Positions 2 to 59,965 of a DNA stretch of 64,000 nt are shown piece after piece (position 1 is the first letter of the stretch; every line of letters begins with the position of its first letter). The notes beneath the pieces are model-generated. The model searched no databases and was not told where the DNA came from. It was given only the letters and a program-made list of their open reading frames with translations. The stretch is from Thermoplasmatales archaeon (GTDB lineage: Archaea > Thermoplasmatota > E2 > UBA202 > JdFR-43): assembly GCA_014361195.1 (NCBI GenBank), contig JACIWA010000003.1:43681-107680 (forward strand). Reading direction: 5' to 3'. Position numbers and translations under genes: made by a program.

Positions 2-511
2 GATAAAAATGATGTTTTTGAAAAAGAAATAGAGATAGATATAACAGAGCTTGGCCCACAGATTGCATGCCCTCACAGTGTGGATAATGTAAAGGATATT
101 GAAGATGTGGAGGGAAAAGAAATAGATCAGGCATTACTCGGCTCATGCACAAATGGAAGAATTGAAGATTTGAGGATAGCCGCAAAAATACTGAAAGGAA
201 GGAAAATAGCAAAAAATGTAAGGTTGCTGGTATTTCCCGCATCAATGAAGATTTATAATCAGGCAATAAAGGAAGGGATAATTTCAACTCTCATAGAAGC
301 GGGAGCGGTAATTATGAATCCTGGATGTGGCCCGTGCCTCGGGGCGCATGAGGGAGTGCTCGCGAGCGGGGAGGTTGCGATAACAACAACAAACAGAAAT
401 TTCCAGGGAAGGATGGGAGCAATAGATTCTGAGATTTATCTTGCATCTCCTGCAACTGTTGCTGCGAGTGCGATTGAGGGTAAGATAAGTGACCTAAGAA
501 AATTTATCTGA
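2..511 (+). CDS. leuC: 3-isopropylmalate/homoaconitate dehydratase large subunit (aconitase family), C-terminal part; 5' end lies upstream of the window
   Basis: Frame is open from the window edge (DKNDVFEKEIEIDITELGPQIACPHSVDNVK...); motifs GSCTNGR and NPGCGPCLGAHEGVL...TTTNRNFQGRMG match the aconitase-family LeuC/HacA C-terminus. LeuC versus HacA cannot be distinguished by eye. Confidence 0.75.
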   Translation, partial: DKNDVFEKEIEIDITELGPQIACPHSVDNVKDIEDVEGKEIDQALLGSCTNGRIEDLRIAAKILKGRKIAKNVRLLVFPASMKIYNQAIKEGIISTLIEAGAVIMNPGCGPCLGAHEGVLASGEVAITTTNRNFQGRMGAIDSEIYLASPATVAASAIEGKISDLRKFI

Positions 512-2237
512 GCTTTCTATAAATGAAAAGCAATAACATGATTAAAATTACAATTGGTAAAACTACCGCAATAATCTCAACTCCTCTTAATTTCTTATAT
601 TCTATTCCATATATTTTTTTATCAATTTTTTCAAATATGTCTTTTACAATTTCAATTCCTTTCTTATAATTCCCTTCCTTGAAATAATTCTCCGCCTTTT
701 TATATTCATCATAAAACTTGCTCCCATTTACAATCCTCTCAATATCCACTCTTGTCTTGCACATGCTTAAAATAATTTCACCCAGCTCATTGGAGAAATT
801 TTTTAAAAAATCGATGTTTTTTTCAATTTCACATATTGAGGTATAATAATCCTTTTTCCACAGATTTCTCAAATTTTCTCTTTCTTCATAACTTGAATTT
901 AAAAATATTTTTTGCAAAATAATTGCTTGCTTCTGCATTTCAACATCAACAGAAGTTAATATTTCACTTGCCATATCAATATTTTTCATTGCTATATCCT
1001 CCACCTTTTCATTTTCATATACAAGGACTTCTTCAAAATTTCCAAAACTAACATTCCCATGCCCGTATTTTCTTAATAAGGAAAGAGATATCTCGGCTGC
1101 TTTTCCATTTTCATAATCATCATATATCTCATAATCACATATATGAACTGGAATAAATATGGAAGAACACTGGTCAGGAGCAAACCATCCAGCCATAAGT
1201 ATTTCTGGATTGCTAAGAGGTATCTTAAATATCATACATGCTTTCATTTCATTTTCGCATAATCCTCTTAGCCCTTCTATTTGCCAAGAATGAATTCTAG
1301 ATATATTCATTAAATCAATTACATTTATATTCCTGTATTTCTCATTTAAAATTCTTCCAATTCTATTTTCCCATTCATAATATTCATAGCAAACCCTCAA
1401 TTTTGCTTTTCTTCCATTTGCTTCCTTGAATTCTACATAAAAATTTCCAACCTTGCTTCCATTGCCTTTTTCAATTTTTGTCTCTTCCCCTAAAGGAAAT
1501 TGCTTTACAATTACATAATCATCTTTTATTTCCACTACTCTTATCCCATAAATCCCTCCTATTCTTACAACTTCTTTTTCAAATACATATCCATCAAAAA
1601 CTTTATCAAAAGATGATGCAATTCCAATCTTCCTTAAAAACCTGCTTTTCCATAGATATTTTGGATAATTTGACATAACCTCCAAGCCCTGAACTTCTCT
1701 TGAATAAAAATGAAGTGCATCCGCTTCAATTACATATGCTTCTTTTCCGACAACAAATAAATTTTCTCCTATACCTGGAGCATGCATATCAACAACTTCT
1801 TCAAGCAAGGCAACCGCCTCCTTTTCATTCCCTGCCTGCTGCGCCGCATAGCGGAGCCAATCGAAGTCGTCCCATGCTCTTTTTGTTGGATTTATCCAGT
1901 AGGTGGGCACATCCGCATCACCATATGCAAGACCCGCGCTCGTCATCATCATTCCCGCCTTCACTATATTTGGGGGTATATCTCCAGATGTTGCAACCCC
2001 TATTATTTTATATTTTGTTTTGAAAGCCATTTCATAATTTCTCCAGGGATGGTGGTAATTATATTCATATCCTTCATTTAAAATAAATAAAACCTGCAAA
2101 CCAGAGCGAGATGGGTCACGGACTTTCATGAAAAGATTGTAATTTCCAGAAGTTGCTTCATCCATAACAATTATATCTTTACAAGCGGAAGATAAGGGAA
2201 GAATTAACACTACAATAAGCAGAGCAATTTTATTCAC
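504..2237 (-). CDS. Exported, C-terminally membrane-anchored protein of unknown function (possible Ntn-hydrolase/C69-like peptidase)
   Basis: 577-aa ORF; N-terminal hydrophobic signal (MNKIALLIVVLILPLSSAC) with Cys right after the predicted cleavage site; C-terminal TM plus basic tail (IIAVVLPIVILIMLLLFIYRKLR); functional assignment is weak. Confidence 0.45.
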   Translation of the reverse strand: MNKIALLIVVLILPLSSACKDIIVMDEATSGNYNLFMKVRDPSRSGLQVLFILNEGYEYNYHHPWRNYEMAFKTKYKIIGVATSGDIPPNIVKAGMMMTSAGLAYGDADVPTYWINPTKRAWDDFDWLRYAAQQAGNEKEAVALLEEVVDMHAPGIGENLFVVGKEAYVIEADALHFYSREVQGLEVMSNYPKYLWKSRFLRKIGIASSFDKVFDGYVFEKEVVRIGGIYGIRVVEIKDDYVIVKQFPLGEETKIEKGNGSKVGNFYVEFKEANGRKAKLRVCYEYYEWENRIGRILNEKYRNINVIDLMNISRIHSWQIEGLRGLCENEMKACMIFKIPLSNPEILMAGWFAPDQCSSIFIPVHICDYEIYDDYENGKAAEISLSLLRKYGHGNVSFGNFEEVLVYENEKVEDIAMKNIDMASEILTSVDVEMQKQAIILQKIFLNSSYEERENLRNLWKKDYYTSICEIEKNIDFLKNFSNELGEIILSMCKTRVDIERIVNGSKFYDEYKKAENYFKEGNYKKGIEIVKDIFEKIDKKIYGIEYKKLRGVEIIAVVLPIVILIMLLLFIYRKLR

Positions 2238-2308
2238 AAAAATAATAAAAAAGAGGTAAATTTATTTTTCTAATTGCAAAATATTTTTATTACCAAGAGA
2301 TATTAATC

Positions 2309-2644
2309 ATGGGAAAGTTTAAAGATGCTATTAGTAGCTATATGGAAGCAAAAAAAGAATTGATAAAGAGCGAGCCAGAAATAATGAAAAATTATCAGAA
2401 ATTCGTGGAATCAATTCTGAAAGAAGGACATCTGAGCACAAAAACAAAAGAATTAATTGCACTGGCAATAGCGATTGTAAAAAGATGTGAATATTGCATT
2501 GGAATACATGTTGAAAAAGCATTAAAAGCAGGAGCAACCAAAGAAGAAATAATTGAAGTCGCTTTAGTTTGTACACTGATGGAAGGAGGACCCGCAATGA
2601 CATATTTTACGGAAGTAAAAAAAGCATTGGATGATTTCTGCTAA
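2309..2644 (+). CDS. Carboxymuconolactone decarboxylase / AhpD-like family protein
   Basis: 111 aa; CxxC-containing core (KRCEYCIGIHVEKALKAGATKEEI) typical of AhpD-like fold; stop overlaps rnz start by 1 nt (TAATG). Confidence 0.75.
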   Translation: MGKFKDAISSYMEAKKELIKSEPEIMKNYQKFVESILKEGHLSTKTKELIALAIAIVKRCEYCIGIHVEKALKAGATKEEIIEVALVCTLMEGGPAMTYFTEVKKALDDFC

Positions 2645-3558
2645 TGCAACTCTATATTTATTTCCTTGGGACAGGAGGCAGTTGGCCAACAGTCCAGAGA
2701 AATGTGTCTTCAATAGCAATAAAAAGAGGAGGAGAAGTGCTCCTCTTTGATTGTGGAGAAGGAACGCAACGGCAACTCCAAAAATCTGAAATAAGTTATA
2801 TGCAGATAAAAAGAATTTTTATAACACATTTCCATGGAGATCATATCTTGGGATTGCCTGGATTAATTCAAACTTTTCAGCTAAATGATAGAAAAGAGGA
2901 TTTGCATATATATGGGCCGAAAGGAATAAATGAACTTGTTCATGAAATTGCCCATCTCGGTTACTTCAAGCCTTCCTATAAGATTTATTCACATGAATTG
3001 AATGAAAATGATTGTGTTGATTTTGATGGATATAAAATAAAATGCATTTTTGTTGAGCATAATGTTCCAACCCTTGCATATTGCTTGGAAGAAGATATTA
3101 GACCTGGAAAATTCAACAAAGAAAGAGCTCTATCTCTTGGAATTCCGGAAGGGCATTTATTCAGGGAATTGCAGAAGGGAAAAAGTATAGAGATAAATGG
3201 AAAAATAATAACCCCCGACATGGTGCTCGGCGAGCCCCGCCCCGGGAGAAAAATTATTATATCTGGAGATACAATGCCTTGCAGTAAATTAGTAGAATTT
3301 GCAAAAAAGAGCGATGTGCTGATACATGATGCAACCTTCTCATCAGATATGGAAGAAAAAGCAAAAGAGTATTTTCATTCCACCGCAATGCAATCCGCAC
3401 AAATAGCAAAAGAAGCGGAAGTAGAGATGCTTATTTTAACTCATATAAGTCCAAGATATAAGAATGCAAAAATTTTGGAAGAAGAAGCGAGGAAAATATT
3501 TCCAAATTCATATTTAGCAAATGATTTTATGAAAATTGAAGTTAAATTAAAGAAGTGA
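2644..3558 (+). CDS. rnz: Ribonuclease Z (tRNA 3' endonuclease, metallo-beta-lactamase fold)
   Basis: 304 aa short-form tRNase Z; His motif ITHFHGDHILGLPGL; GTGGSWP N-terminus. Confidence 0.9.
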   Translation: MQLYIYFLGTGGSWPTVQRNVSSIAIKRGGEVLLFDCGEGTQRQLQKSEISYMQIKRIFITHFHGDHILGLPGLIQTFQLNDRKEDLHIYGPKGINELVHEIAHLGYFKPSYKIYSHELNENDCVDFDGYKIKCIFVEHNVPTLAYCLEEDIRPGKFNKERALSLGIPEGHLFRELQKGKSIEINGKIITPDMVLGEPRPGRKIIISGDTMPCSKLVEFAKKSDVLIHDATFSSDMEEKAKEYFHSTAMQSAQIAKEAEVEMLILTHISPRYKNAKILEEEARKIFPNSYLANDFMKIEVKLKK

Positions 3559-3610
3559 GGAGTGAGGTAGAGGAGGTGAAAAGAAAAAGATAAAAAGACC
3601 TCACTCCTCA
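3556..3610. repeat. Perfect 13-bp inverted repeat (TGAGGAGTGAGGT ... ACCTCACTCCTCA) with 29-nt purine-rich loop, starting at the rnz stop codon
   Basis: Read directly: left arm 3556-3568, right arm 3598-3610; followed by T-rich tracts before tRNA-Gln. Confidence 0.6.
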
Positions 3611-3701
3611 TTGAGAATAGATTGTCGATTTATAAATTTTTGGTAAAAGATTTAAAGAATAATTTTTTACATTATTGCTCCATAGTTATTCCTCAATAAT
3701 C

Positions 3702-3774
3702 AGCCCCGTGGTGTAGTGGTCAAGCATGTGAGGCTCTGGACCTCACGACCCAGGTTCGAATCCTGGCGGGGCTA
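3702..3774 (+). tRNA. tRNA-Gln (anticodon CTG)
   Basis: 73-nt cloverleaf: acceptor AGCCCCG/CGGGGCT, anticodon stem TGAGG/CCTCA with loop CTCTGGA, T-arm GGTTCGAATCC; A1-U72 typical of archaeal tRNA-Gln. Confidence 0.85.
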
Positions 3775-5031
3775 TCAAATTTTTTTCCATTTTCTTCCCG
3801 CATATATTGGCTTCTCAATGCCCTCTTCAATTCTCATCAGTTGATTATATTTTTCTGTTCTCTCCGCCCTGCAGGGTGCGCCCGCTTTTATCTGCCCGCA
3901 ATCTATTGCGACTGCTAAATCCGCTATAAATGAATCGCAGGTGTCACCAGAGCGATGGGATACCATTATTGAATAATTATTTTCCTTGCATATTTTTGCT
4001 ACTCTGAGTGTTTCAGTTAATGTGCCGCATTGATTTGGCTTCAGCAGCAATGCATTGCATGCCTTCTTTTTTATTCCTTCTTTTAATCTTTTTGCATTTG
4101 TTACAAAAATATCATCTCCAACAATCTGTATTTTCTTTCCCAATTTTTTTGTTATTTTAACAAATCCATCCCAATCATCTTCAGCAAAAGGATCTTCAAA
4201 TGAAATTATAGGATAATCTTCTACAAGCTCTTCATAAAAATCAATTAGCTCATCCACATCTTTTTCTCCTTCTATATGATAGCTATTGCCTTTATAAAAA
4301 GAAGAGGCTGCGCTATCAATTGCTAACATAACTTCATTTTCATAGCCATTTTCTTCTATAGCATTCATTATTAGCTCAAGGGCGGATCTTGTCTCCTTTA
4401 GAGGAGGAGCAAATCCACCTTCATCACCAACATTTATTGAATTTTTCCCATATTTCTTTAAGAGTATTTCCTTCAATGAATAATATACTTCACATGCCTT
4501 TCTTACCGCATCTGAAAAACTTTTAGCCACCAATGGAGCAATCATGAATTCCTGTATGGCAAGCTCATTTCCCGCATGCTTTCCTCCATTTATTATGTTC
4601 ATGAAAGGAATTGGCAAAATATTTCCATTCTTGTTTAAATATTGATATACAGGAATTTTTTCTTCATTGGCGGAACACTTACAGCAAGCAATTGACGTAG
4701 CTATTGATGCATTTCCCCCAATTATTCTTTTATCTGGTGTCCCATCTATTTTAATAATCTTTTCATCAATTTCCTCCTGCTCTTTTACATCCATCCCCAC
4801 CAAGGCGGGGGCCAGAATTGTATGAACATTTTCTATTGCATTCCTTACTCCTTTCCCATGAAATTCTTTTCCTCCATCTCTAAGCTCAACCGCTTCTCTC
4901 GCTCCGCGACTTGCTCCGGATGGGGCGCTTGCCCTCCCTGTAGCATTTTTTGTTTTTACTTCTACCTCTATCGTTGGATTTCCTCTTGAATCAAGAATTT
5001 GCCTGGCTTTTATGCTCTCTATTCTGCTCAT
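3775..5031 (-). CDS. eno: Enolase (phosphopyruvate hydratase)
   Basis: 418 aa; canonical enolase N-terminus IKARQILDSRGNPTIEVEV, SHRSGDT and KPNQCGTLTE motifs; stop abuts tRNA-Gln 3' end. Confidence 0.95.
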   Translation of the reverse strand: MSRIESIKARQILDSRGNPTIEVEVKTKNATGRASAPSGASRGAREAVELRDGGKEFHGKGVRNAIENVHTILAPALVGMDVKEQEEIDEKIIKIDGTPDKRIIGGNASIATSIACCKCSANEEKIPVYQYLNKNGNILPIPFMNIINGGKHAGNELAIQEFMIAPLVAKSFSDAVRKACEVYYSLKEILLKKYGKNSINVGDEGGFAPPLKETRSALELIMNAIEENGYENEVMLAIDSAASSFYKGNSYHIEGEKDVDELIDFYEELVEDYPIISFEDPFAEDDWDGFVKITKKLGKKIQIVGDDIFVTNAKRLKEGIKKKACNALLLKPNQCGTLTETLRVAKICKENNYSIMVSHRSGDTCDSFIADLAVAIDCGQIKAGAPCRAERTEKYNQLMRIEEGIEKPIYAGRKWKKI

Positions 5032-7376: not shown

Positions 7377-9578
7377 CTACATTACTTCTACTCCTTTCTT
7401 CAACTCTTTCTTGGCAACTCCCTTGCCCAACTTCTTCTCCATTTCTTTATAATATTCCATCATTTCTTCATCAACAGATGGATGAACTTCTTTCATAGCC
7501 CTCATGAAATGCTCTCTTGTTACTTCATTTGCATTTTCTCTCAATGCCATCATTCCTGCCTCCCTGCATATCGCTTCTATATCCGCTCCTACATATCCTT
7601 CCGCTATTCCCGCCAGCTCATCTATGCTAACATCTTTTGCAAGTGGCATATTTTTTGTATGTATCTTGAAAATGCTCTTCCTGGCTTCTTTATCTGGTAT
7701 TCCTACAAGTACCAGTTCATCAAACCTCCCGGGGCGAAGGAGGGAGGGGTCAATTATATCTGGCCTGTTCGTTGCACCAATTATAACAACATCACTCATC
7801 TGCTCCAGCCCATCAATTGAAGTTAGAAGTTGATTTACAACAGTTTCAGTTACCCTTGTTCCTTCATGGCTCCCTCTTCTTGGAGCAATTGCATCTATTT
7901 CATCGAAAAATACTATTGATGGAGCGGTCTGCTTTGCCTTCTTGAATAACTCTCTTATTGCTTTCTCACTCTCACCCACCCATTTGCTGAAAATCTCTGG
8001 TCCTTTTACTGACAAAAAGTTTGCTTCACTTTCTGTCGCAACCGCTTTCGCAAGCAATGTTTTTCCTGTTCCTGGTGGGCCATAAAGCAAAATTCCTTTT
8101 GGTGGCCTGATTCCCATTTTTTTAAATGCTTCAGGATTTTTTAATGGCCATTCAACCGCTTCTCTTAATCTTTGCTTCACATCTTCAAGCCCGCCAATAT
8201 CCTCCCACCTAACATTTGGAATTTCAATTAAAACTTCTCTCAGAGCGGATGGTTCAATCATCTTAAGGGCTTCTTTGAAATCATTCATCATAACAACCAT
8301 TTTTTCAAGAACTTCAGTGGGAATTGGCTTATCAAGCTCTATCTCTGGCAAATACCTGCGCAATGCATTCATCGCCGCCTCCCTTGCAAGTGCTGCAAGA
8401 TCCGCTCCAACAAATCCATGGGTTACATCAGCAAGTGCATCCAGATTTACATCTTCCGCAAGGGGCATGCCTCTTGTATGAATTTGAAGAATCTCCTTTC
8501 TGCCATCTCTGTCTGGAACTCCTATTTCAATTTCCCTGTCAAATCTTCCAGGGCGCCTTAAAGCGGGATCCAAAGAATCTGGCCTGTTTGTTGCCCCTAT
8601 AACTATTACTTTTCCCCTTCCCTTTAATCCATCCATTAGAGTAAGCAATTGAGAAACGACTCTTCTTTCAACCTCACCATGCACTTCCTCTCTTTTGGGA
8701 GCAATTGCATCTATTTCATCAATGAAAATTATTGAGGGAGCATTTTTTTCCGCTTCCTCGAATGTCCTTCTCAAATTTTCCTCGCTCTGGCCATAAAATT
8801 TACTCATTATTTCAGGCCCATTTATTGTAAAGAAGCTTGCTCCAGATTCATTTGCAACAGCTTTTGCAATCAATGTTTTTCCTGTTCCTGGTGGGCCATA
8901 AAGCAATACTCCTTTTGGAGGATCTATTCCAAGCCTTTCAAAAAGCTCAGGATGTTTCAATGGCAATTCTATCATCTCTCTTATTTTCATTATTTCTTCA
9001 TCAAGTCCTCCAATATCTTCATAGCTTATCTGTGGCAATTTAAGCAATTCTTCCTTTATCGGCTCTTCTTTGACTATAACACTTGTTTCATCCCCAATAA
9101 CTACTAATCCTTTTGGCTCGGTTTTAACAACTCCAAATGGAAGGGAGTTACCAAAAAGAGCAATTCCTGGAACAATTATTGTATCTCCCGCAGTGAGTGG
9201 GCGTTTATAAAGCCCTCTCTTAACTATGCTCTCTATACCATGCCCAAATTGGATTCTCTGGCTCTGAGAAATTGCTGGGGCAATAACAACCTGGCTCGCT
9301 ACCTTCACTTCCACTTTCCTTATTGTTACCTTATCCCCGATTCCAACTCTCGCATTTTTCCTCGTAAGATTGTCTATCCTTATTATTCCCTTCCCCTCAT
9401 CAATGGGGCGGGCGCGCCAGACTATTGCTCCAGTTTTTCTTCCCCCTTCTATCTCAATTATGTCGCCTGGTGCAACATTTAGCTTCATTCTCGTTTCAGT
9501 ATCGATTCTCGCTCTTCCCGCTCCTACATCCTGACTAAGGCCTTCAGCCACCCTAAGCACAACTTCATTCGTTTCCAT
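7377..9578 (-). CDS. cdc48: CDC48/VCP-like AAA+ ATPase (two AAA domains)
   Basis: 733 aa; two Walker A (GPPGTGKT) and Walker B ([16 protein letters not shown]) modules plus N-terminal Cdc48 domain. Confidence 0.95.
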
Positions 9579-9904
9579 CAGTTTTGATAATACAACACAT
9601 ATTAATTTCTTTTGCTGAATTTATGCAAGCTTTTTATTCCATTAAACCACAGGCACTATCAGGAATTAAATTTAAATAATAGAAAAACTTTCAAAATTAC
9701 TTGATGAAAGAAGAGAATATTTTGCTGAATGTAGGAAAGAGAAAAATTGACTTTGAATCAATTCATTCAGATTCATCTTTTTACTAAACTGAATTTAGAG
9801 GTGTGTGAATAAAAATAACAAGGCAAGGTTTAGGAGCATGGAACTGCATTAGTTAATCTATAATATGGAGGTAAGAATTTCTTGGCACTGAAAGGCAAAC
9901 AATA

Positions 9905-9925
9905 AGTTACATTTTTATATTCCTT
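9905..9925 (+). promoter_or_regulatory. Candidate archaeal TATA box (TTTTTATAT) ~24 nt upstream of the rps19e ATG, implying a leaderless transcript
   Basis: AT-rich TATA-like element at 9913-9921 in a 360-bp divergent intergenic region; spacing consistent with leaderless initiation. Confidence 0.3.
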
Positions 9926-9940
9926 CTTTATTGCTTTTCA

Positions 9941-29400: not shown

Positions 29401-29730
29401 GTAGATGTTGTTACAAAAATAATTCAAAAGCATTTCCTTACCGATTTAACAGGAAATTTAAAAGCTTTTACAAAACAGCAGTTCAGGTGCACAAATTGCA
29501 ATACAAAATATAGGAGAATACCTTTAAATGGAAAATGCGGGAAATGTGGAAATTCACTTTCTCTGACAGTTCATGAAAGCTCTATAAAGAAATATTTAGG
29601 AATTATAAAGAAGCTTTCAGATGAGTTTAAAATACCAAATTATGTACAGCAGAGAATAATTCTTTCAGAAAAATTTGTTGAATCCCTATTTAAAGATGAG
29701 AGAGATAAAACTCTCACCGACTTCTTTTAA
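26482..29730 (+). CDS. polC: DNA polymerase II (PolD) large subunit DP2; apparent GTG start
   Basis: 1082 aa; PolD catalytic motifs (GIRIIPKALHRIGARMGRPEKS; zinc clusters CxxC...CxxC near 28330 and 29490; LVVGLSPHTSAGIVGR); no intein-length insertion evident. Confidence 0.9.
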   Translation: MEEYFKSIEKKVNECYEIAILARKKGFDPKKEVEISFAKDLADRVEELVGPKGISHKIRKYLKEKGREETAIQVAIEICENMQGSHAEIIEQSVRTGLAILTEGVLVAPIEGISSVEIGKNSDGSKYVDLYFSGPIRSAGGTGEAMSVLIADVVRRKLGLDRYKPTDDEVERYKEEIPLYDRMTHLQYLPSPEEIELIIRNCPICINGEPTEKEEVMGKRDLPRIKTNRIRGGACLVIAEGLCLKAPKLMKHVARLKLEGWDFLKNFSKELDENKEIAPSERYIEDLIGGRPVISHPSRKGGFRLRYGRGRTCGLGATAIHPATMYLLDGFIAVGTQLKTERPGKGTIATPCDTIEGAMVLLDNGDFIQINSIEEAIKIAKNVKKIIDLGEILIPFGEFFENNSILPPASFCYEWWIKELEEKANIEEVKIKHGIDNFESIYFEKAIELSKEYDIPLHPSYNLFWHDISKEEFQILREFIRKGIYDGKLYLEKDKRLKEILLSLGVTHLEREKYIVEKYADVLIKCCGFEVKNGKIFEVKNSSKEAIEAVQEILGIRIIPKALHRIGARMGRPEKSSERKMDPPPHVLFPAGIGKGGKERVLNTAGKINAELGERKCEKCGRITYKTKCECGGHTYFTGNTKNFEIDVGEEISKAEKKLNIQVKKVKGVIGLSSSKKTPECIEKGIIRAKYDVYVFKDGTARYDMTNMPLTHFKPYEIGLSLDKLKELGYEHDYKGEKLVRENQIIELKPQDVIPSKKCGEYFLRISKYIDEILSKIYGMKPFYNANSLNDLIGHLVVGLSPHTSAGIVGRIIGFIDLNVCCAHPFFHAAKRRNCDGDEDSLMLLTDVLINFSKEYIPEKRGGKMDLPLVIAMRISPSEIDKEALSLDTLNSYPLIFYRKTHEYAHPKELEKEMDLVANRLGSEREYKFFGFTHDTSNIGNAPKTSSYKLYENMEEKVIAQINLAKKIRAVDEVDVVTKIIQKHFLTDLTGNLKAFTKQQFRCTNCNTKYRRIPLNGKCGKCGNSLSLTVHESSIKKYLGIIKKLSDEFKIPNYVQQRIILSEKFVESLFKDERDKTLTDFF

Positions 29731-29765: not shown

Positions 29766-29874
29766 CCCGGCGTAACTCAGACTGGTAGAGTGGCGGACTG
29801 TAGTTGCATCCCTTGGGCTATAACCCACCGCCGCGGAAATCCGCAAGTCGCTGGTTCAAATCCGGCCGCCGGGA
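29766..29874 (+). tRNA. tRNA-Tyr (anticodon GTA) with a 35-nt intron at the canonical 37/38 position
   Basis: Acceptor CCCGGCG/CGCCGGG with C1:G72 (archaeal Tyr identity pair) and discriminator A; anticodon stem GCGGA ... TCCGC split by an insertion at 29804-29838; mature loop CTGTAGA; T-arm GCTGGTTCAAATCCGGC. Confidence 0.8.
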
Positions 29875-30563
29875 CTCCAATAATTTTTATCACTCCTTCG
29901 TTTTTTATTGTATCTTTCTAAATGAAAGGATACATATATGAATATTAATACCAGAGGCAGATGTAAATCCCGTTCCACCACAAAAGATCTGGCTGGATTA
30001 AAAAATTCATTATCACATTCCAGAAACAAATGATTGCTCCTAGAAATATTGTAACTCTAACTGTTGCAATATTAACTTTAGGATATAAAGGTGTCATAGT
30101 GCAAAAGGCGCTGAATTTGTAAATAAATAAACCAAATTAAAATCTGGTTTCCCTGATTTAATATCTATCGGGAACCAGAAGGCTAAAAATGCTAACTCAA
30201 CAACCCAATATCTTATAACAGACAAACCCTGAACAAATGAAAAAATTATGTAAGTGAGTGGCGCATAAAAACTAAACTCCCTACTAACCTTTTTTGAAAA
30301 TAATTAATCAATCACAAAAATAATAGGAATAAGCTTAAAAATAGGGTAAAATAGGGATAAATTATCTATTAAAGCATTCCTAAGAAGGTAGGCAATCACT
30401 TCGCTCATTTTAGAGAGATCGTATCCCTTTTCTGTTAGTGGAGGAATTGAGTTGGCCAAGATTAAAATGACAAAGAACCACCATCTGCGATTTATTGATT
30501 CAAGAACTCTTGAATTTTCTCAAGATTTTCTTTTTTCATCCTCTCTAACTCTTTTTAATCCAA

Positions 30564-31853
30564 TCACGGCCTAAGCCTATATCTATCTCTCGGGAAAAGA
30601 ATGCATTCCCTTATATTCTTTAATTTAAGCAAACCCATCAAAAATCTTTCAATTCCATATCCAAACCCGCCGTGAGGTGGCATGCCATATTTAAAGGCTT
30701 TTAGGTAATCTTCAAAATTTTTTAAATTCATTCCAAGCTCACTCATTCTTTTAGTGAGTATTTCATAATCATGTATTCTTTGAGCTCCTGATGCAATTTC
30801 CATTCCTCTTAGCTCTAGGTCAAAAGCTCTTGCATATTTTCCAGATGGCATTGCATAAAAAGGCTTTGATTCAACAGGAAAATCCTTTATAAAATATATT
30901 TCATAACCTAAATTTTTGTATAAAATACTTTCCTCATCTGCTCCTAAATCCTCACCCCATGAAAATTTTATTTCCTTGCTCAGTATTTCAACAACTTCAT
31001 CGTATTTTACTCTTGGATAAGGAGGAGATGGCATTTCTATCTCTAAATTTAATATCTCTAACTCCTTGCTGTTCTCTTCAACTATTTTATTTATTGAATA
31101 ATCTGTCATTTCTTCCGCAATCTTCATCACATCTTCTTCACTTTCAATAAATGCCATTTCTATATCAATTGCAGTTGATTCATTTAAGTGGCGGGTTGTA
31201 TCATGCTCCTCCGCCCTGAAATACCATGCTATTTCAAATACCCTATCCAAACCAGATGCCATTAGCATTTGCTTATACAGCTGAGGGGATTGAACAAGAT
31301 ATGCATCTCTATCAAAATAATTTATTTTGAATACCTCTGTCCCTCCCTCAGAAGAGGATGATGAGATTTTTGGAGTGTGTACTTCTATAAATCCTTTCCT
31401 TCTCAAAAATTCAACAGCATTTTTTATAAATGAATTTCTTATCATGAAAACTGCTCTAACATCATCTTTCCTTAAATCTATTATTCTATTATCAAGGCGT
31501 GTATCAAAATCAACATTAACCTTATCTACAACACCCATTGGTAAGGGAGTTGAGGAAGGGGCAAGTAATTTAAATTCCTCAATCAAAATTTCCCATCCAT
31601 TCATTACTTTTTCATTTTTCTTGCAAATTCCACAAGCGGAAATTACGCTTTCTCTATTTAAAGAAACTAATTCTTTAAAAAGCTCCAAATTTTCTTTTTT
31701 AATAGCGGTAATTTGAGCTCTTCCAGTTCTATCTCTCAATATAATGAATGCTATTCCCCCGAGATTTCTTATTTCCTCAACCCAGCCAGCAAGACAAACC
31801 TTCTTTTCATTCTCTTCTTCTCCTACCTCATTTATATAATGTGTTCGAAGCAT
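30564..31853 (-). CDS. aspS: Aspartyl-tRNA synthetase (archaeal class IIb)
   Basis: 429 aa; N-terminal OB anticodon-binding domain, class II motifs (FRAEEHDTTRHLNE; GGFGYGIERFLM). Confidence 0.9.
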   Translation of the reverse strand: MLRTHYINEVGEEENEKKVCLAGWVEEIRNLGGIAFIILRDRTGRAQITAIKKENLELFKELVSLNRESVISACGICKKNEKVMNGWEILIEEFKLLAPSSTPLPMGVVDKVNVDFDTRLDNRIIDLRKDDVRAVFMIRNSFIKNAVEFLRRKGFIEVHTPKISSSSSEGGTEVFKINYFDRDAYLVQSPQLYKQMLMASGLDRVFEIAWYFRAEEHDTTRHLNESTAIDIEMAFIESEEDVMKIAEEMTDYSINKIVEENSKELEILNLEIEMPSPPYPRVKYDEVVEILSKEIKFSWGEDLGADEESILYKNLGYEIYFIKDFPVESKPFYAMPSGKYARAFDLELRGMEIASGAQRIHDYEILTKRMSELGMNLKNFEDYLKAFKYGMPPHGGFGYGIERFLMGLLKLKNIRECILFPRDRYRLRP

Positions 31854-57236: not shown

Positions 57237-59064
57237 AAAATTATGTAGAAAGGTTGTTGGAAAATTGAAAATAAAAGAGGAAGATAAAGAGAGAGTAAAT
57301 AAAAGAGTATCTAAGGAATTTTTAGATAGCTTGCATTTCACTGGAATTGACCTTGAACCCTATGAAATAATCTATTTTTCTTATATCTGCGCATTAATTT
57401 CTTTTTTAATTACATTCCTTATTTCTATTTCAATTTTTGCAATTTATGGTTTTTCAATAAGAAATATGGGTTTTTTAACAATTTTCTTGATAATTTTGCT
57501 TCTTTTTGTTTTTCCTCTTCTTTCATTGCACTATGTAAGTGAATACCCTAAAATAAAGGCAAAATATATGAAAGCACGCTCCCTGGGCGATATACCGGAG
57601 ATAATATCTTATCTTGTAATGTATCTAAAATTAGTTCCAAATTTAGAAAGAGCATTTAATTTTGCAGCAAAAGAGTCAAATTCTTCTCTTTCAAAAGATT
57701 TAAGGAAAATTATATGGGATCTACAGATAAGAATACATAAAAGTATAGATGATGCAATAACTTATTTTGCAAATTTATGGGGGGAATGGAATGAATATTT
57801 AAGGAGGGCAATTCATTTAATAAGAAATTCTGTAAAGGAAAAAGAAAATGAAAGAGTTGCTACATTAGATAGAGCTCTTGATGTTGTTCTGGAAGGAACA
57901 AGGGATTTAATGATTGATTTCTCCAATAAACTTCATCAGCCAACTCTTATAATATATTCTCTTGGCTTTATGCTCCCTATTGCAACAATGGCAATGCTTC
58001 CAGCGGTTAATGTAATCGGCCTCAGATTCTCTATCTTTCATATAATCATATTTTATGATATTCTTCTACCTGTTTTCCTGTTTTTTTATATAAGAAAAAT
58101 TCTTGCAAATCGCCCCGCAACTTTCAACCCACCTTCAATTCCATCAAAAAAAATCAGGAACATAAAAAATATCTTAATTTCAATTTTTCTTTTCCTTCCT
58201 TTCCTAGCCCTTTTTCTTCGTCCCCCTACTTCTCTCTTTTCTAAAAATTTTTTCCTGATATGGGGTGTGGCAATTTCAGTCTCGATTTACTGCCTCCTTA
58301 CCTATAACAAAGATAAAAAGGAAAGAGATAAAATAAGGAAAATGGAGAAAGAATTTGGTGACGCCCTCTATATCCTCGGCAGGAGGGTGGCGGAAGGCAA
58401 GCCCCCAGAAGAAGCATTTAATCATGTAGCCCAAGCAATGAAAGGCTCTACTATAGGAGAAGTTTTTGCAAAAGCATTTTATAATCTGATTTCCAGAAGG
58501 ATAAAAATTGAGAATGCGTTTTTTGATGAAGAATATGGAGCTCTTGCCAATGTTTATTCAGATAGAATAAAGGCTATAATAAAAATTTTTATAGAAGGAG
58601 TTAAGAAAAGCTATGAATATGCTGGAATTGCAATAGTTAAAATAGCGGATCATCTAAAACAGCTTCAGGATGTGGAAAAGAAAATAAGAGACAGCTTATC
58701 TTCAATAACTTCTTCTCTTCGTTCAACCGCGACATTTTTTGCTCCTTTGATAGGGGGAGTAACTCTTGGAATGACAAATCTAATGCAAAAAATTCTTTCT
58801 TCATTGAATTTTTCATTTTCTGAGGATGTAACAATTCCAATATTTGGAAAGATATTTTATGTTGAAACAACAGGTGATTTTGCTATTGTAATTGGAATCT
58901 ATATTATTCTTCTTGTATTTTTGATATTGAGGCTCGCAAATGGAATAGATGAGGGGGATGATAAAATAGAATATTTCTATGGAGTTGGAAAATCTCTCCC
59001 AATAGCGGTTTTCATTTTTACAATTTCCTCCGTGTTTTCTTACATGATTTTTTCAAGTTTATGA
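57226..59064 (+). CDS. Type II secretion system F-domain membrane platform protein (FlaJ/TadC/PilC-like)
   Basis: 612 aa polytopic membrane protein with two T2SSF-like cytoplasmic helical domains separated by TM blocks; overlaps the upstream ATPase gene. Confidence 0.8.
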   Translation: MQFEKLCRKVVGKLKIKEEDKERVNKRVSKEFLDSLHFTGIDLEPYEIIYFSYICALISFLITFLISISIFAIYGFSIRNMGFLTIFLIILLLFVFPLLSLHYVSEYPKIKAKYMKARSLGDIPEIISYLVMYLKLVPNLERAFNFAAKESNSSLSKDLRKIIWDLQIRIHKSIDDAITYFANLWGEWNEYLRRAIHLIRNSVKEKENERVATLDRALDVVLEGTRDLMIDFSNKLHQPTLIIYSLGFMLPIATMAMLPAVNVIGLRFSIFHIIIFYDILLPVFLFFYIRKILANRPATFNPPSIPSKKIRNIKNILISIFLFLPFLALFLRPPTSLFSKNFFLIWGVAISVSIYCLLTYNKDKKERDKIRKMEKEFGDALYILGRRVAEGKPPEEAFNHVAQAMKGSTIGEVFAKAFYNLISRRIKIENAFFDEEYGALANVYSDRIKAIIKIFIEGVKKSYEYAGIAIVKIADHLKQLQDVEKKIRDSLSSITSSLRSTATFFAPLIGGVTLGMTNLMQKILSSLNFSFSEDVTIPIFGKIFYVETTGDFAIVIGIYIILLVFLILRLANGIDEGDDKIEYFYGVGKSLPIAVFIFTISSVFSYMIFSSL

Positions 59065-59965
59065 ATAAAGATGTCTATTTTGCAAAATCTTTTCATAGAT
59101 TACCAATCTCTTCAAGCGCTTCTGACAATTATTGCATTAGCCATATTCGCCCGCATTCACAATTCCCTTAATAATCATTTTGATATTACCCCCAATAATC
59201 TCTAATTTAACCAAAAGAATAAAGAAGGCAGTTTATTCCCATTTCATTGCATTTCCGGATGACTCTTTTAGAAAAATCGCTAGCAATTATCACTCCCGCA
59301 ATACATTTATGAAATCGAGCAATAGGGATAGAATCTTTGATAAGAATGTCCACATGTAACTCTGGCAAGGCTTTTTCACCAAGGAATTCCAAATCTTTTG
59401 GACTTATAAAAGATTGGAATAAGAATTCCTTAAAGTAAAAAATTCAGGTGGTGAGACAAGAGATTTGTTCCATGTAAGAAAATTGTAAATACTTCATAAT
59501 TATCGCTCCGAAAAAATGTGTTTTTCTGTAACCTCCTCTTAAAAGCAAATTTTCCGCAACATAAGCAAACTCTGGCCTTACCATAGGTTCAACAAATTCA
59601 AGGAGTGGTTTTAAATAGAGGTGAAAAAGAAAATAATAGGTTTCCTCTCTAACCTACTATTGCAGCATATAAAAAAGAGATATACTCTCCTGTTTGAATG
59701 TTTGTGAATGCCCATAATCCATTTATACTATTTGTAAACCCTGCAAGAGATATTTTATACATAAATCCAAATTGGTTCTATTTGATACAGAAATTAAAAA
59801 GTAAGACATATTATTCACCCTTGCCAAGTTTTATCTCCTTAAATATAACTTTTTAAATCTTAATGAATTTTGTTTAACCTTAAATTGGCAAAATTACCCA
59901 CTTTAAGCTACTTCACTCATGCAAAATCTTATCTATTAGTTTCTTATTTCTTTTTTGGTGTAAAG

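Follow-up and report, generated by a model that had tools for sequence, protein, structure and literature searches.

Why should a densely coded archaeal contig carry about 680 bp of apparently empty DNA between a tRNA gene and a tRNA ligase gene? We analysed a window of 64,000 nucleotides (64 kb) of archaeal DNA from a 201-kb contig in the metagenome-assembled genome (MAG) of a Thermoplasmatales archaeon. Long open reading frames (ORFs) are packed throughout the rest of this window, and the longest that overlap positions 29881–30563 measure only 57, 52, 51 and 50 amino acids. An earlier note on this DNA was therefore right that the stretch holds no ORF of 60 amino acids or more. It had offered three readings of the gap: a decayed gene for a small membrane protein on the minus strand, the remnant of an element integrated beside tRNA-Tyr, or a regulatory or terminator structure for aspS.

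The setting of the gap is as that note described it, between tRNA-Tyr and the 3′ end of aspS, with the two genes convergent around it (Table 1). The tRNA-Tyr gene contains an intron; ARAGORN missed it in default mode and recovered it with the intron option. Upstream of it, the gene for the large subunit of DNA polymerase II (PolD) ends at 29730. On the other side, aspS is intact and is named aspartate--tRNA(Asn) ligase in its source record. The GenBank accessions of PolD (MBC7081173) and aspS (MBC7081174) are consecutive, so no protein is annotated between them. Two other stretches of the window, 59064–59870 and 9578–9938, are without an ORF of at least 90 amino acids and without an Rfam match at gathering score.

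Table 1 Positions of the features discussed, in window coordinates unless a locus handle precedes them.
Feature	Position	Strand	Evidence or detail
tRNA-Tyr(GUA)	29766–29875	+	Rfam RF00005, 52.7 bits; ARAGORN intron option; 35-nt intron in the anticodon loop (about 29802–29836)
T-rich tRNA-Tyr trailer, left edge of the variable slot	29876–29890	+	Last stretch alignable with relatives (blastn, L172–L178)
Lineage-specific filling of the tRNA-Tyr/aspS slot	29891–30561	.	Sister-genome homology stops on both sides
Probable pseudogene, uncharacterised family of 265–280-aa multipass membrane proteins	29856–30539	-	Joined translation, tblastn, alignment, DNA identity
Lesion 1, 1-nt deletion	30505–30509	-	Codon 12; frame shifted after MKKENLEKIQ
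Lesion 2, in-frame TAA	30304–30306	-	Aligned with P0004 residue 81–82 (VFA/L)
Lesion 3, junction of in-frame deletion of about 41 codons	30217–30226	-	P0004 residues ~109–150 lost
Lesion 4, 7-nt deletion	30100–30109	-	Frameshift in the conserved TN.AGLAFC.MTP motif
Lesion 5, junction of 8-codon (24-nt) in-frame deletion	30082–30083	-	LGILTLYY absent after TMTPLY
Lesion 6, 2-nt deletion	29966–29968	-	Frameshift after conserved WWNG; conserved LHLPL... in another frame
Nested palindromes	30499–30525	.	Pseudogene codons 6–14 (L-E-K-I-Q-E-F-L-E), CTTGAG..ATTCAAG..CTTGAA
aspS, non-discriminating aspartate--tRNA ligase	30564–31853	-	Intact; stop codon is the right edge of the slot
Low-GC family genes	L082:5001–5801; L085:4001–4768; L086:3482–4249; L101:4001–4768		GC values in the text, same order
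CRISPR-Cas loci in the slot of sister strains	L165:6291–11290; L166:6291–11290; L172:1–6470; L174:1–6470		
tRNA-Leu(GAG) after aspS	L009:5073–5158; L010:7297–7382; L011:4380–4465; L013:7306–7391		

Coding content of the gap

On the minus strand, a hydrophobic frame runs from 30519 to 30097. It was reported earlier as roughly 100 codons broken by one in-frame TAA; the single TAA is there, but the frame comprises 141 codons and the whole gap belongs to the gene. We built a joined translation from three minus-strand frames, in which the consecutive pieces MKKENLEKIQ, LESINRRWWFF...TNSA, AFCTMTPLY...WWNG and LHLPLVLIFIY... follow one another. This translation matches 76 protein clusters, the best with E = 3.9e-58 and 48% identity at 97% query coverage, and all of the full-length matches are 257–307 amino acids long, mostly 265–280. 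When intact members were compared with the whole window by tblastn, the sole match was the gap, in three successive frames (E = 4e-52 for P0004 and 1e-54 for P0001). The DNA itself is 70–74% identical over about 350 nt to homologues on unrelated contigs (blastn E = 4.5e-61).

The window copy keeps the family motifs RRWWF, YPIFK, RYWVV.LAFLAFWFP, PDFN, FCTMTP, PKVN, RVT, WWNG and LHLPL. Its best relatives are 45–49% identical over all query residues and 59–61% over aligned columns, and a metagenome scan for a close intact orthologue returned none above 49% identity. Neither the joined translation nor its pieces match any Pfam or NCBIfam model. A caveat had been raised that AT-rich DNA yields hydrophobic translations by chance; the protein and DNA matches to one family exclude this. 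The reconstructed frame of 227 codons contains one stop where about 17 would be expected from base composition, and the six raw frames have 11–25 stops.

The pseudogene starts at an ATG (30539–30537) 24 nt past the aspS stop. In its present frame the last piece reaches a stop at 29856–29858, inside the 3′ end of tRNA-Tyr, and the original stop probably lay near 29891. Of the 671 bp between the tRNA-Tyr trailer and aspS, which we call the slot, 649 are taken up by the pseudogene. We conclude that the gap is very probably the broken remnant of a membrane-protein gene of about 275 codons, an ordinary pseudogene. The proposal of a decayed membrane-protein gene is thereby upheld, through the family match and the six mapped lesions described below; the parent gene, at that length, was not the small one that had been supposed.

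Lesions and parent family

We mapped the lesions in a 17-sequence alignment with intact members (Table 1). At the first site the window reads CAAGAG-TTCTTGAA and the homologues CAAGGAACACTTGAA. The third lesion takes away three of the ten columns that are invariant in the family (G117, W135 and E138), together with the predicted β-hairpin and the helix 122–141 of the AlphaFold model (pLDDT 94.7). All five indels are deletions, of 1 nt, about 123 nt, 7 nt, 24 nt and 2 nt, and restoring the missing bases gives about 280 codons, the length of the family. The window copy is collinear with the intact members P0001–P0076 but, compared with them, lacks about 49 codons, including the three invariant columns, and has its frame broken by three frameshifts and a stop. 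Judged by these lesions, it is a derelict copy and no working member of the family, and no part of it would be able to make the original protein. The decay is local, and the flanking genes are intact.

A deletional bias has been measured in noncoding DNA of archaea and bacteria (PMC2817411), and the deletions-only pattern seen here fits it. The window copy resembles the eroded prokaryotic pseudogenes described by Kuo and Ochman in 2009 (PMC2817411) in having intact homologues, several disabling mutations and only deletions among its indels, in an otherwise compact genome. It differs from them in that its parent family is itself uncharacterised and in that the lineage of the window has no known intact orthologue by which its inactivation could be dated or explained. 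Since only one stop is present against the ~17 expected, either the gene decayed recently or part of it is still under constraint.

The contig comes from a MAG, and an error is conceivable for the three lesions that are small indels (1, 2 and 7 nt); the gene could then be intact in the organism and the lesions be faults of assembly or sequencing in the contig. We consider this very improbable. Six independent lesions fall within 684 bp, and they include a nonsense codon and in-frame deletions of 123 nt and 24 nt with loss of invariant residues, which are not typical errors and which an artefact would not explain. The 1-nt deletion lies outside any long homopolymer, and the adjacent 3.2-kb PolD gene, the 1.3-kb aspS and all other long genes of the window are uninterrupted.

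The family to which this probable pseudogene belongs was delimited with a profile of 72 members, searched at E ≤ 0.001 against 1.84 billion representatives. The search returned 472 clusters (50% identity), and almost all full-length matches were 255–290 amino acids long with a single domain. Family representatives (P0001–P0076) include QXH37_03950 from a Bathyarchaeia MAG and JSW61_10910 from a Thorarchaeota MAG, which NCBI lists as ‘hypothetical protein’. Placed by source names and neighbouring genes, members occur in archaea (Bathyarchaeia and Thorarchaeota) and in bacteria (contigs with Rho or DivIVA, and an Acidobacteria record). No neighbour gene recurred in 84 family loci, and the family has no match among Pfam, NCBIfam, PADLOC or PHROG models or among the solved structures of the PDB. 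The AlphaFold model cited above gives it a confidently predicted fold without a solved relative.

Several family genes are lower in GC than their host loci (0.35 versus 0.44, 0.39 versus 0.45, 0.37 versus 0.46 and 0.34 versus 0.40), and the top members are 70–79% identical in protein across bacterial and archaeal contigs. Low GC and high identity between contigs are compatible with horizontal spread of the family.

Palindromes downstream of aspS

The nested palindromes noted earlier are present: TTCAAGA-AC-TCTTGAA at 30499–30514 and TCTTGA-ATTTTC-TCAAGA at 30508–30525. Lying 38–65 nt downstream of the aspS stop, in a region poor in ORFs, they invite the reading that the gap is functional non-coding DNA, be it a terminator for aspS, a regulatory hairpin or a small RNA gene. 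They coincide with codons near the 5′ end of the pseudogene (Table 1), where the (T)TCAAG of Ile-Gln has CTTGAG and CTTGAA (Leu-Glu) as its reverse complement. In unrelated genomes, intact homologues carry this arrangement too, as CTTGAA...ATTCAAG...CTTGAA in the coding sequence at their 5′ end, with no aspS upstream of any of them (L081, L082, L083 and L087).

The window contains 89 perfect 7-bp stems with loops of 0–8 nt and Markov-simulated sequence 99 ± 11, which places such stems at chance frequency. No T-run follows the stem on the aspS strand, where the minus-strand sequence is CAATAAATCG. In sister genomes homology ends 1–2 nt past the aspS stop, and none of the sequence downstream is conserved. 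In a search of Rfam 15 only the tRNA reached gathering score, and the matches from a permissive scan all had E ≥ 2.7. A non-coding function for the gap is accordingly extremely improbable, and the suggested terminator or regulatory structure for aspS was not borne out. We read the palindromes as a side effect of the LE..IQ..LE codons in the 5′ part of the gene.

The tRNA-Tyr/aspS slot in relatives and its history

We recovered sister genomes with 83–85% DNA identity through the clusters of aspS and eIF-1A. Their homology to the window stops at 29890, 15 nt past tRNA-Tyr, and at 30562 (30577 in L178) by blastn, so that alignment with the same locus in relatives does reveal a boundary on each side, with content between them that is not conserved. 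Searches by tblastn with family members gave no trace of the family gene in these relatives, and no counterpart came to light when the region was compared by tblastn and blastn with 80 aspS loci of related species. The tRNA-Tyr gene and its intron are nearly invariant in the alignment with L172, L174, L176 and L178, although the flanking protein genes are only ~84% identical among relatives.

Between the aspS stop and the tRNA-Tyr 3′ end lie 688 nt in the window; elsewhere this distance varies widely, with values of -1, 3, 159, 1508 and ~2000 nt and of ~10 kb where CRISPR-Cas is present. In two distant relatives tRNA-Tyr abuts aspS (L004, -1 nt; L008, 3 nt). The slot of L178 holds about 157–159 nt of unrelated sequence, and those of L003, L001 and L005 hold 1.5–2 kb with as many as three genes, for a membrane protein, an M20-like peptidase and a GNAT protein; L003 has two of them and lacks the membrane protein.

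The nearest strains have a CRISPR array (30-nt repeat, 66-nt period) in the slot, with cas2-cas1-cas4, a type III-A or type I effector module and cas6; in JAWCBX010000001.1 the locus extends over ~10 kb. The flanks of these loci are identical, with the array and cas2-cas1-cas4 beside aspS and cas6 beside tRNA-Tyr. The effector module between them is type III-A (cas10/csm2-5) in L165, L172 and L173 and type I (cas3, DevR/cas7 and cas5) in L166 and L174, a difference suggesting that modules were exchanged inside one species-level group. Neither the relatives’ CRISPR repeat nor any tandem array turned up when the window was searched, and a decayed CRISPR array as the content of the slot was rejected on this ground.

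In L178 (GCA_014361245.1) a defence-like block of genes at 84–4889 is inserted between the DUF1614 gene and aspS, which are adjacent in the window; it encodes a DEAD/SNF2-type helicase, an SMC_N/AAA_23 protein and a Dnd-associated protein. A more distantly related group, whose aspS is ~60% identical, has tRNA-Leu(GAG) in the place of tRNA-Tyr, 6–10 nt past the aspS stop. A convergent tRNA gene directly behind aspS seems to be a recurring arrangement.

Could the gap be the scar of an integrase-mediated island that inserted into the 3′ end of tRNA-Tyr and decayed to one cargo gene? The segment is lineage-specific and lies immediately 3′ of the tRNA gene, the cargo of the slot differs among relatives and includes a complete CRISPR-Cas locus, and the family occurs on bacterial and archaeal contigs without conserved neighbours, as fits a mobile gene. 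Against this, no second copy of the tRNA-Tyr 3′ end exists in the 64 kb (22-mer, up to 3 mismatches), and the direct repeat by which the integrated element was to be recognised is thus missing. No att-like direct repeats flank the slot. We found no integrase or remnant of one within it; the pseudogene fills the slot, and its pieces have no Pfam match. Neither an integrase nor a tRNA recurs as a neighbour in the 84 family loci. With a GC content of 0.317 the slot comes close to the window as a whole (0.346); composition does not flag it as foreign, and codons for membrane proteins are AT-rich in any case. An island scar is on balance improbable. What stands of the integrated-element proposal is a lineage-specific, variable slot; the tRNA repeat, the att repeats and the integrase that would mark such an element are absent.

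Like tRNA-adjacent genomic islands and hot spots of horizontal transfer flanked by core genes, the window has a variable slot with conserved core genes at its edges, aspS at one and tRNA-Tyr with PolD at the other, and the cargo among relatives is unrelated: nothing, three genes, type I or III CRISPR-Cas, or the family gene. It departs from such islands in that the tRNA end is not duplicated as an att site and an integrase is missing, and its cargo is a single dead gene. The locus is a hot spot of gene turnover beside a tRNA gene, without the marks of integrase-mediated insertion.

Our preferred reading remains an ordinary pseudogene, and the following history would account for it. The aspS strand would once have carried, between aspS and tRNA-Tyr, a single gene of about 275 codons that encoded a multipass membrane protein; the family it belongs to is small, uncharacterised and patchy in its distribution. 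Its acquisition was probably horizontal, as the absence of the family gene from related Thermoplasmatota loci suggests, and the gene may have been read through from aspS. It would then have been inactivated and eroded, mainly by deletions and by one TAA nonsense codon. The DNA of the gap would now have no function beyond spacing two convergent genes.

An annotation gap is explained in this way: the ‘empty’ 680 bp would be a dead gene, and neither a regulatory element, an RNA gene nor an att site. As an ordinary feature, it carries little weight for biology at large. It does mark a hot spot of gene turnover between the convergent core genes aspS and intron-containing tRNA-Tyr, which in sister strains is a CRISPR-Cas site. 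A further reading, which we hold to be doubtful, is that in hydrothermal Thermoplasmatota the aspS/tRNA-Tyr interval is a dedicated site of cassette exchange that works without a tRNA-targeting integrase, with the pseudogene as a former occupant and its parent family as mobile cargo. If this were true, cassettes would be swapped there as a whole; those observed comprise single genes, sets of three genes and complete CRISPR-Cas loci, whose type I and type III effector modules would be interchangeable. The pseudogene also draws attention to a compact, well-conserved family of membrane proteins that stands without a counterpart in Pfam, NCBIfam or the PDB.
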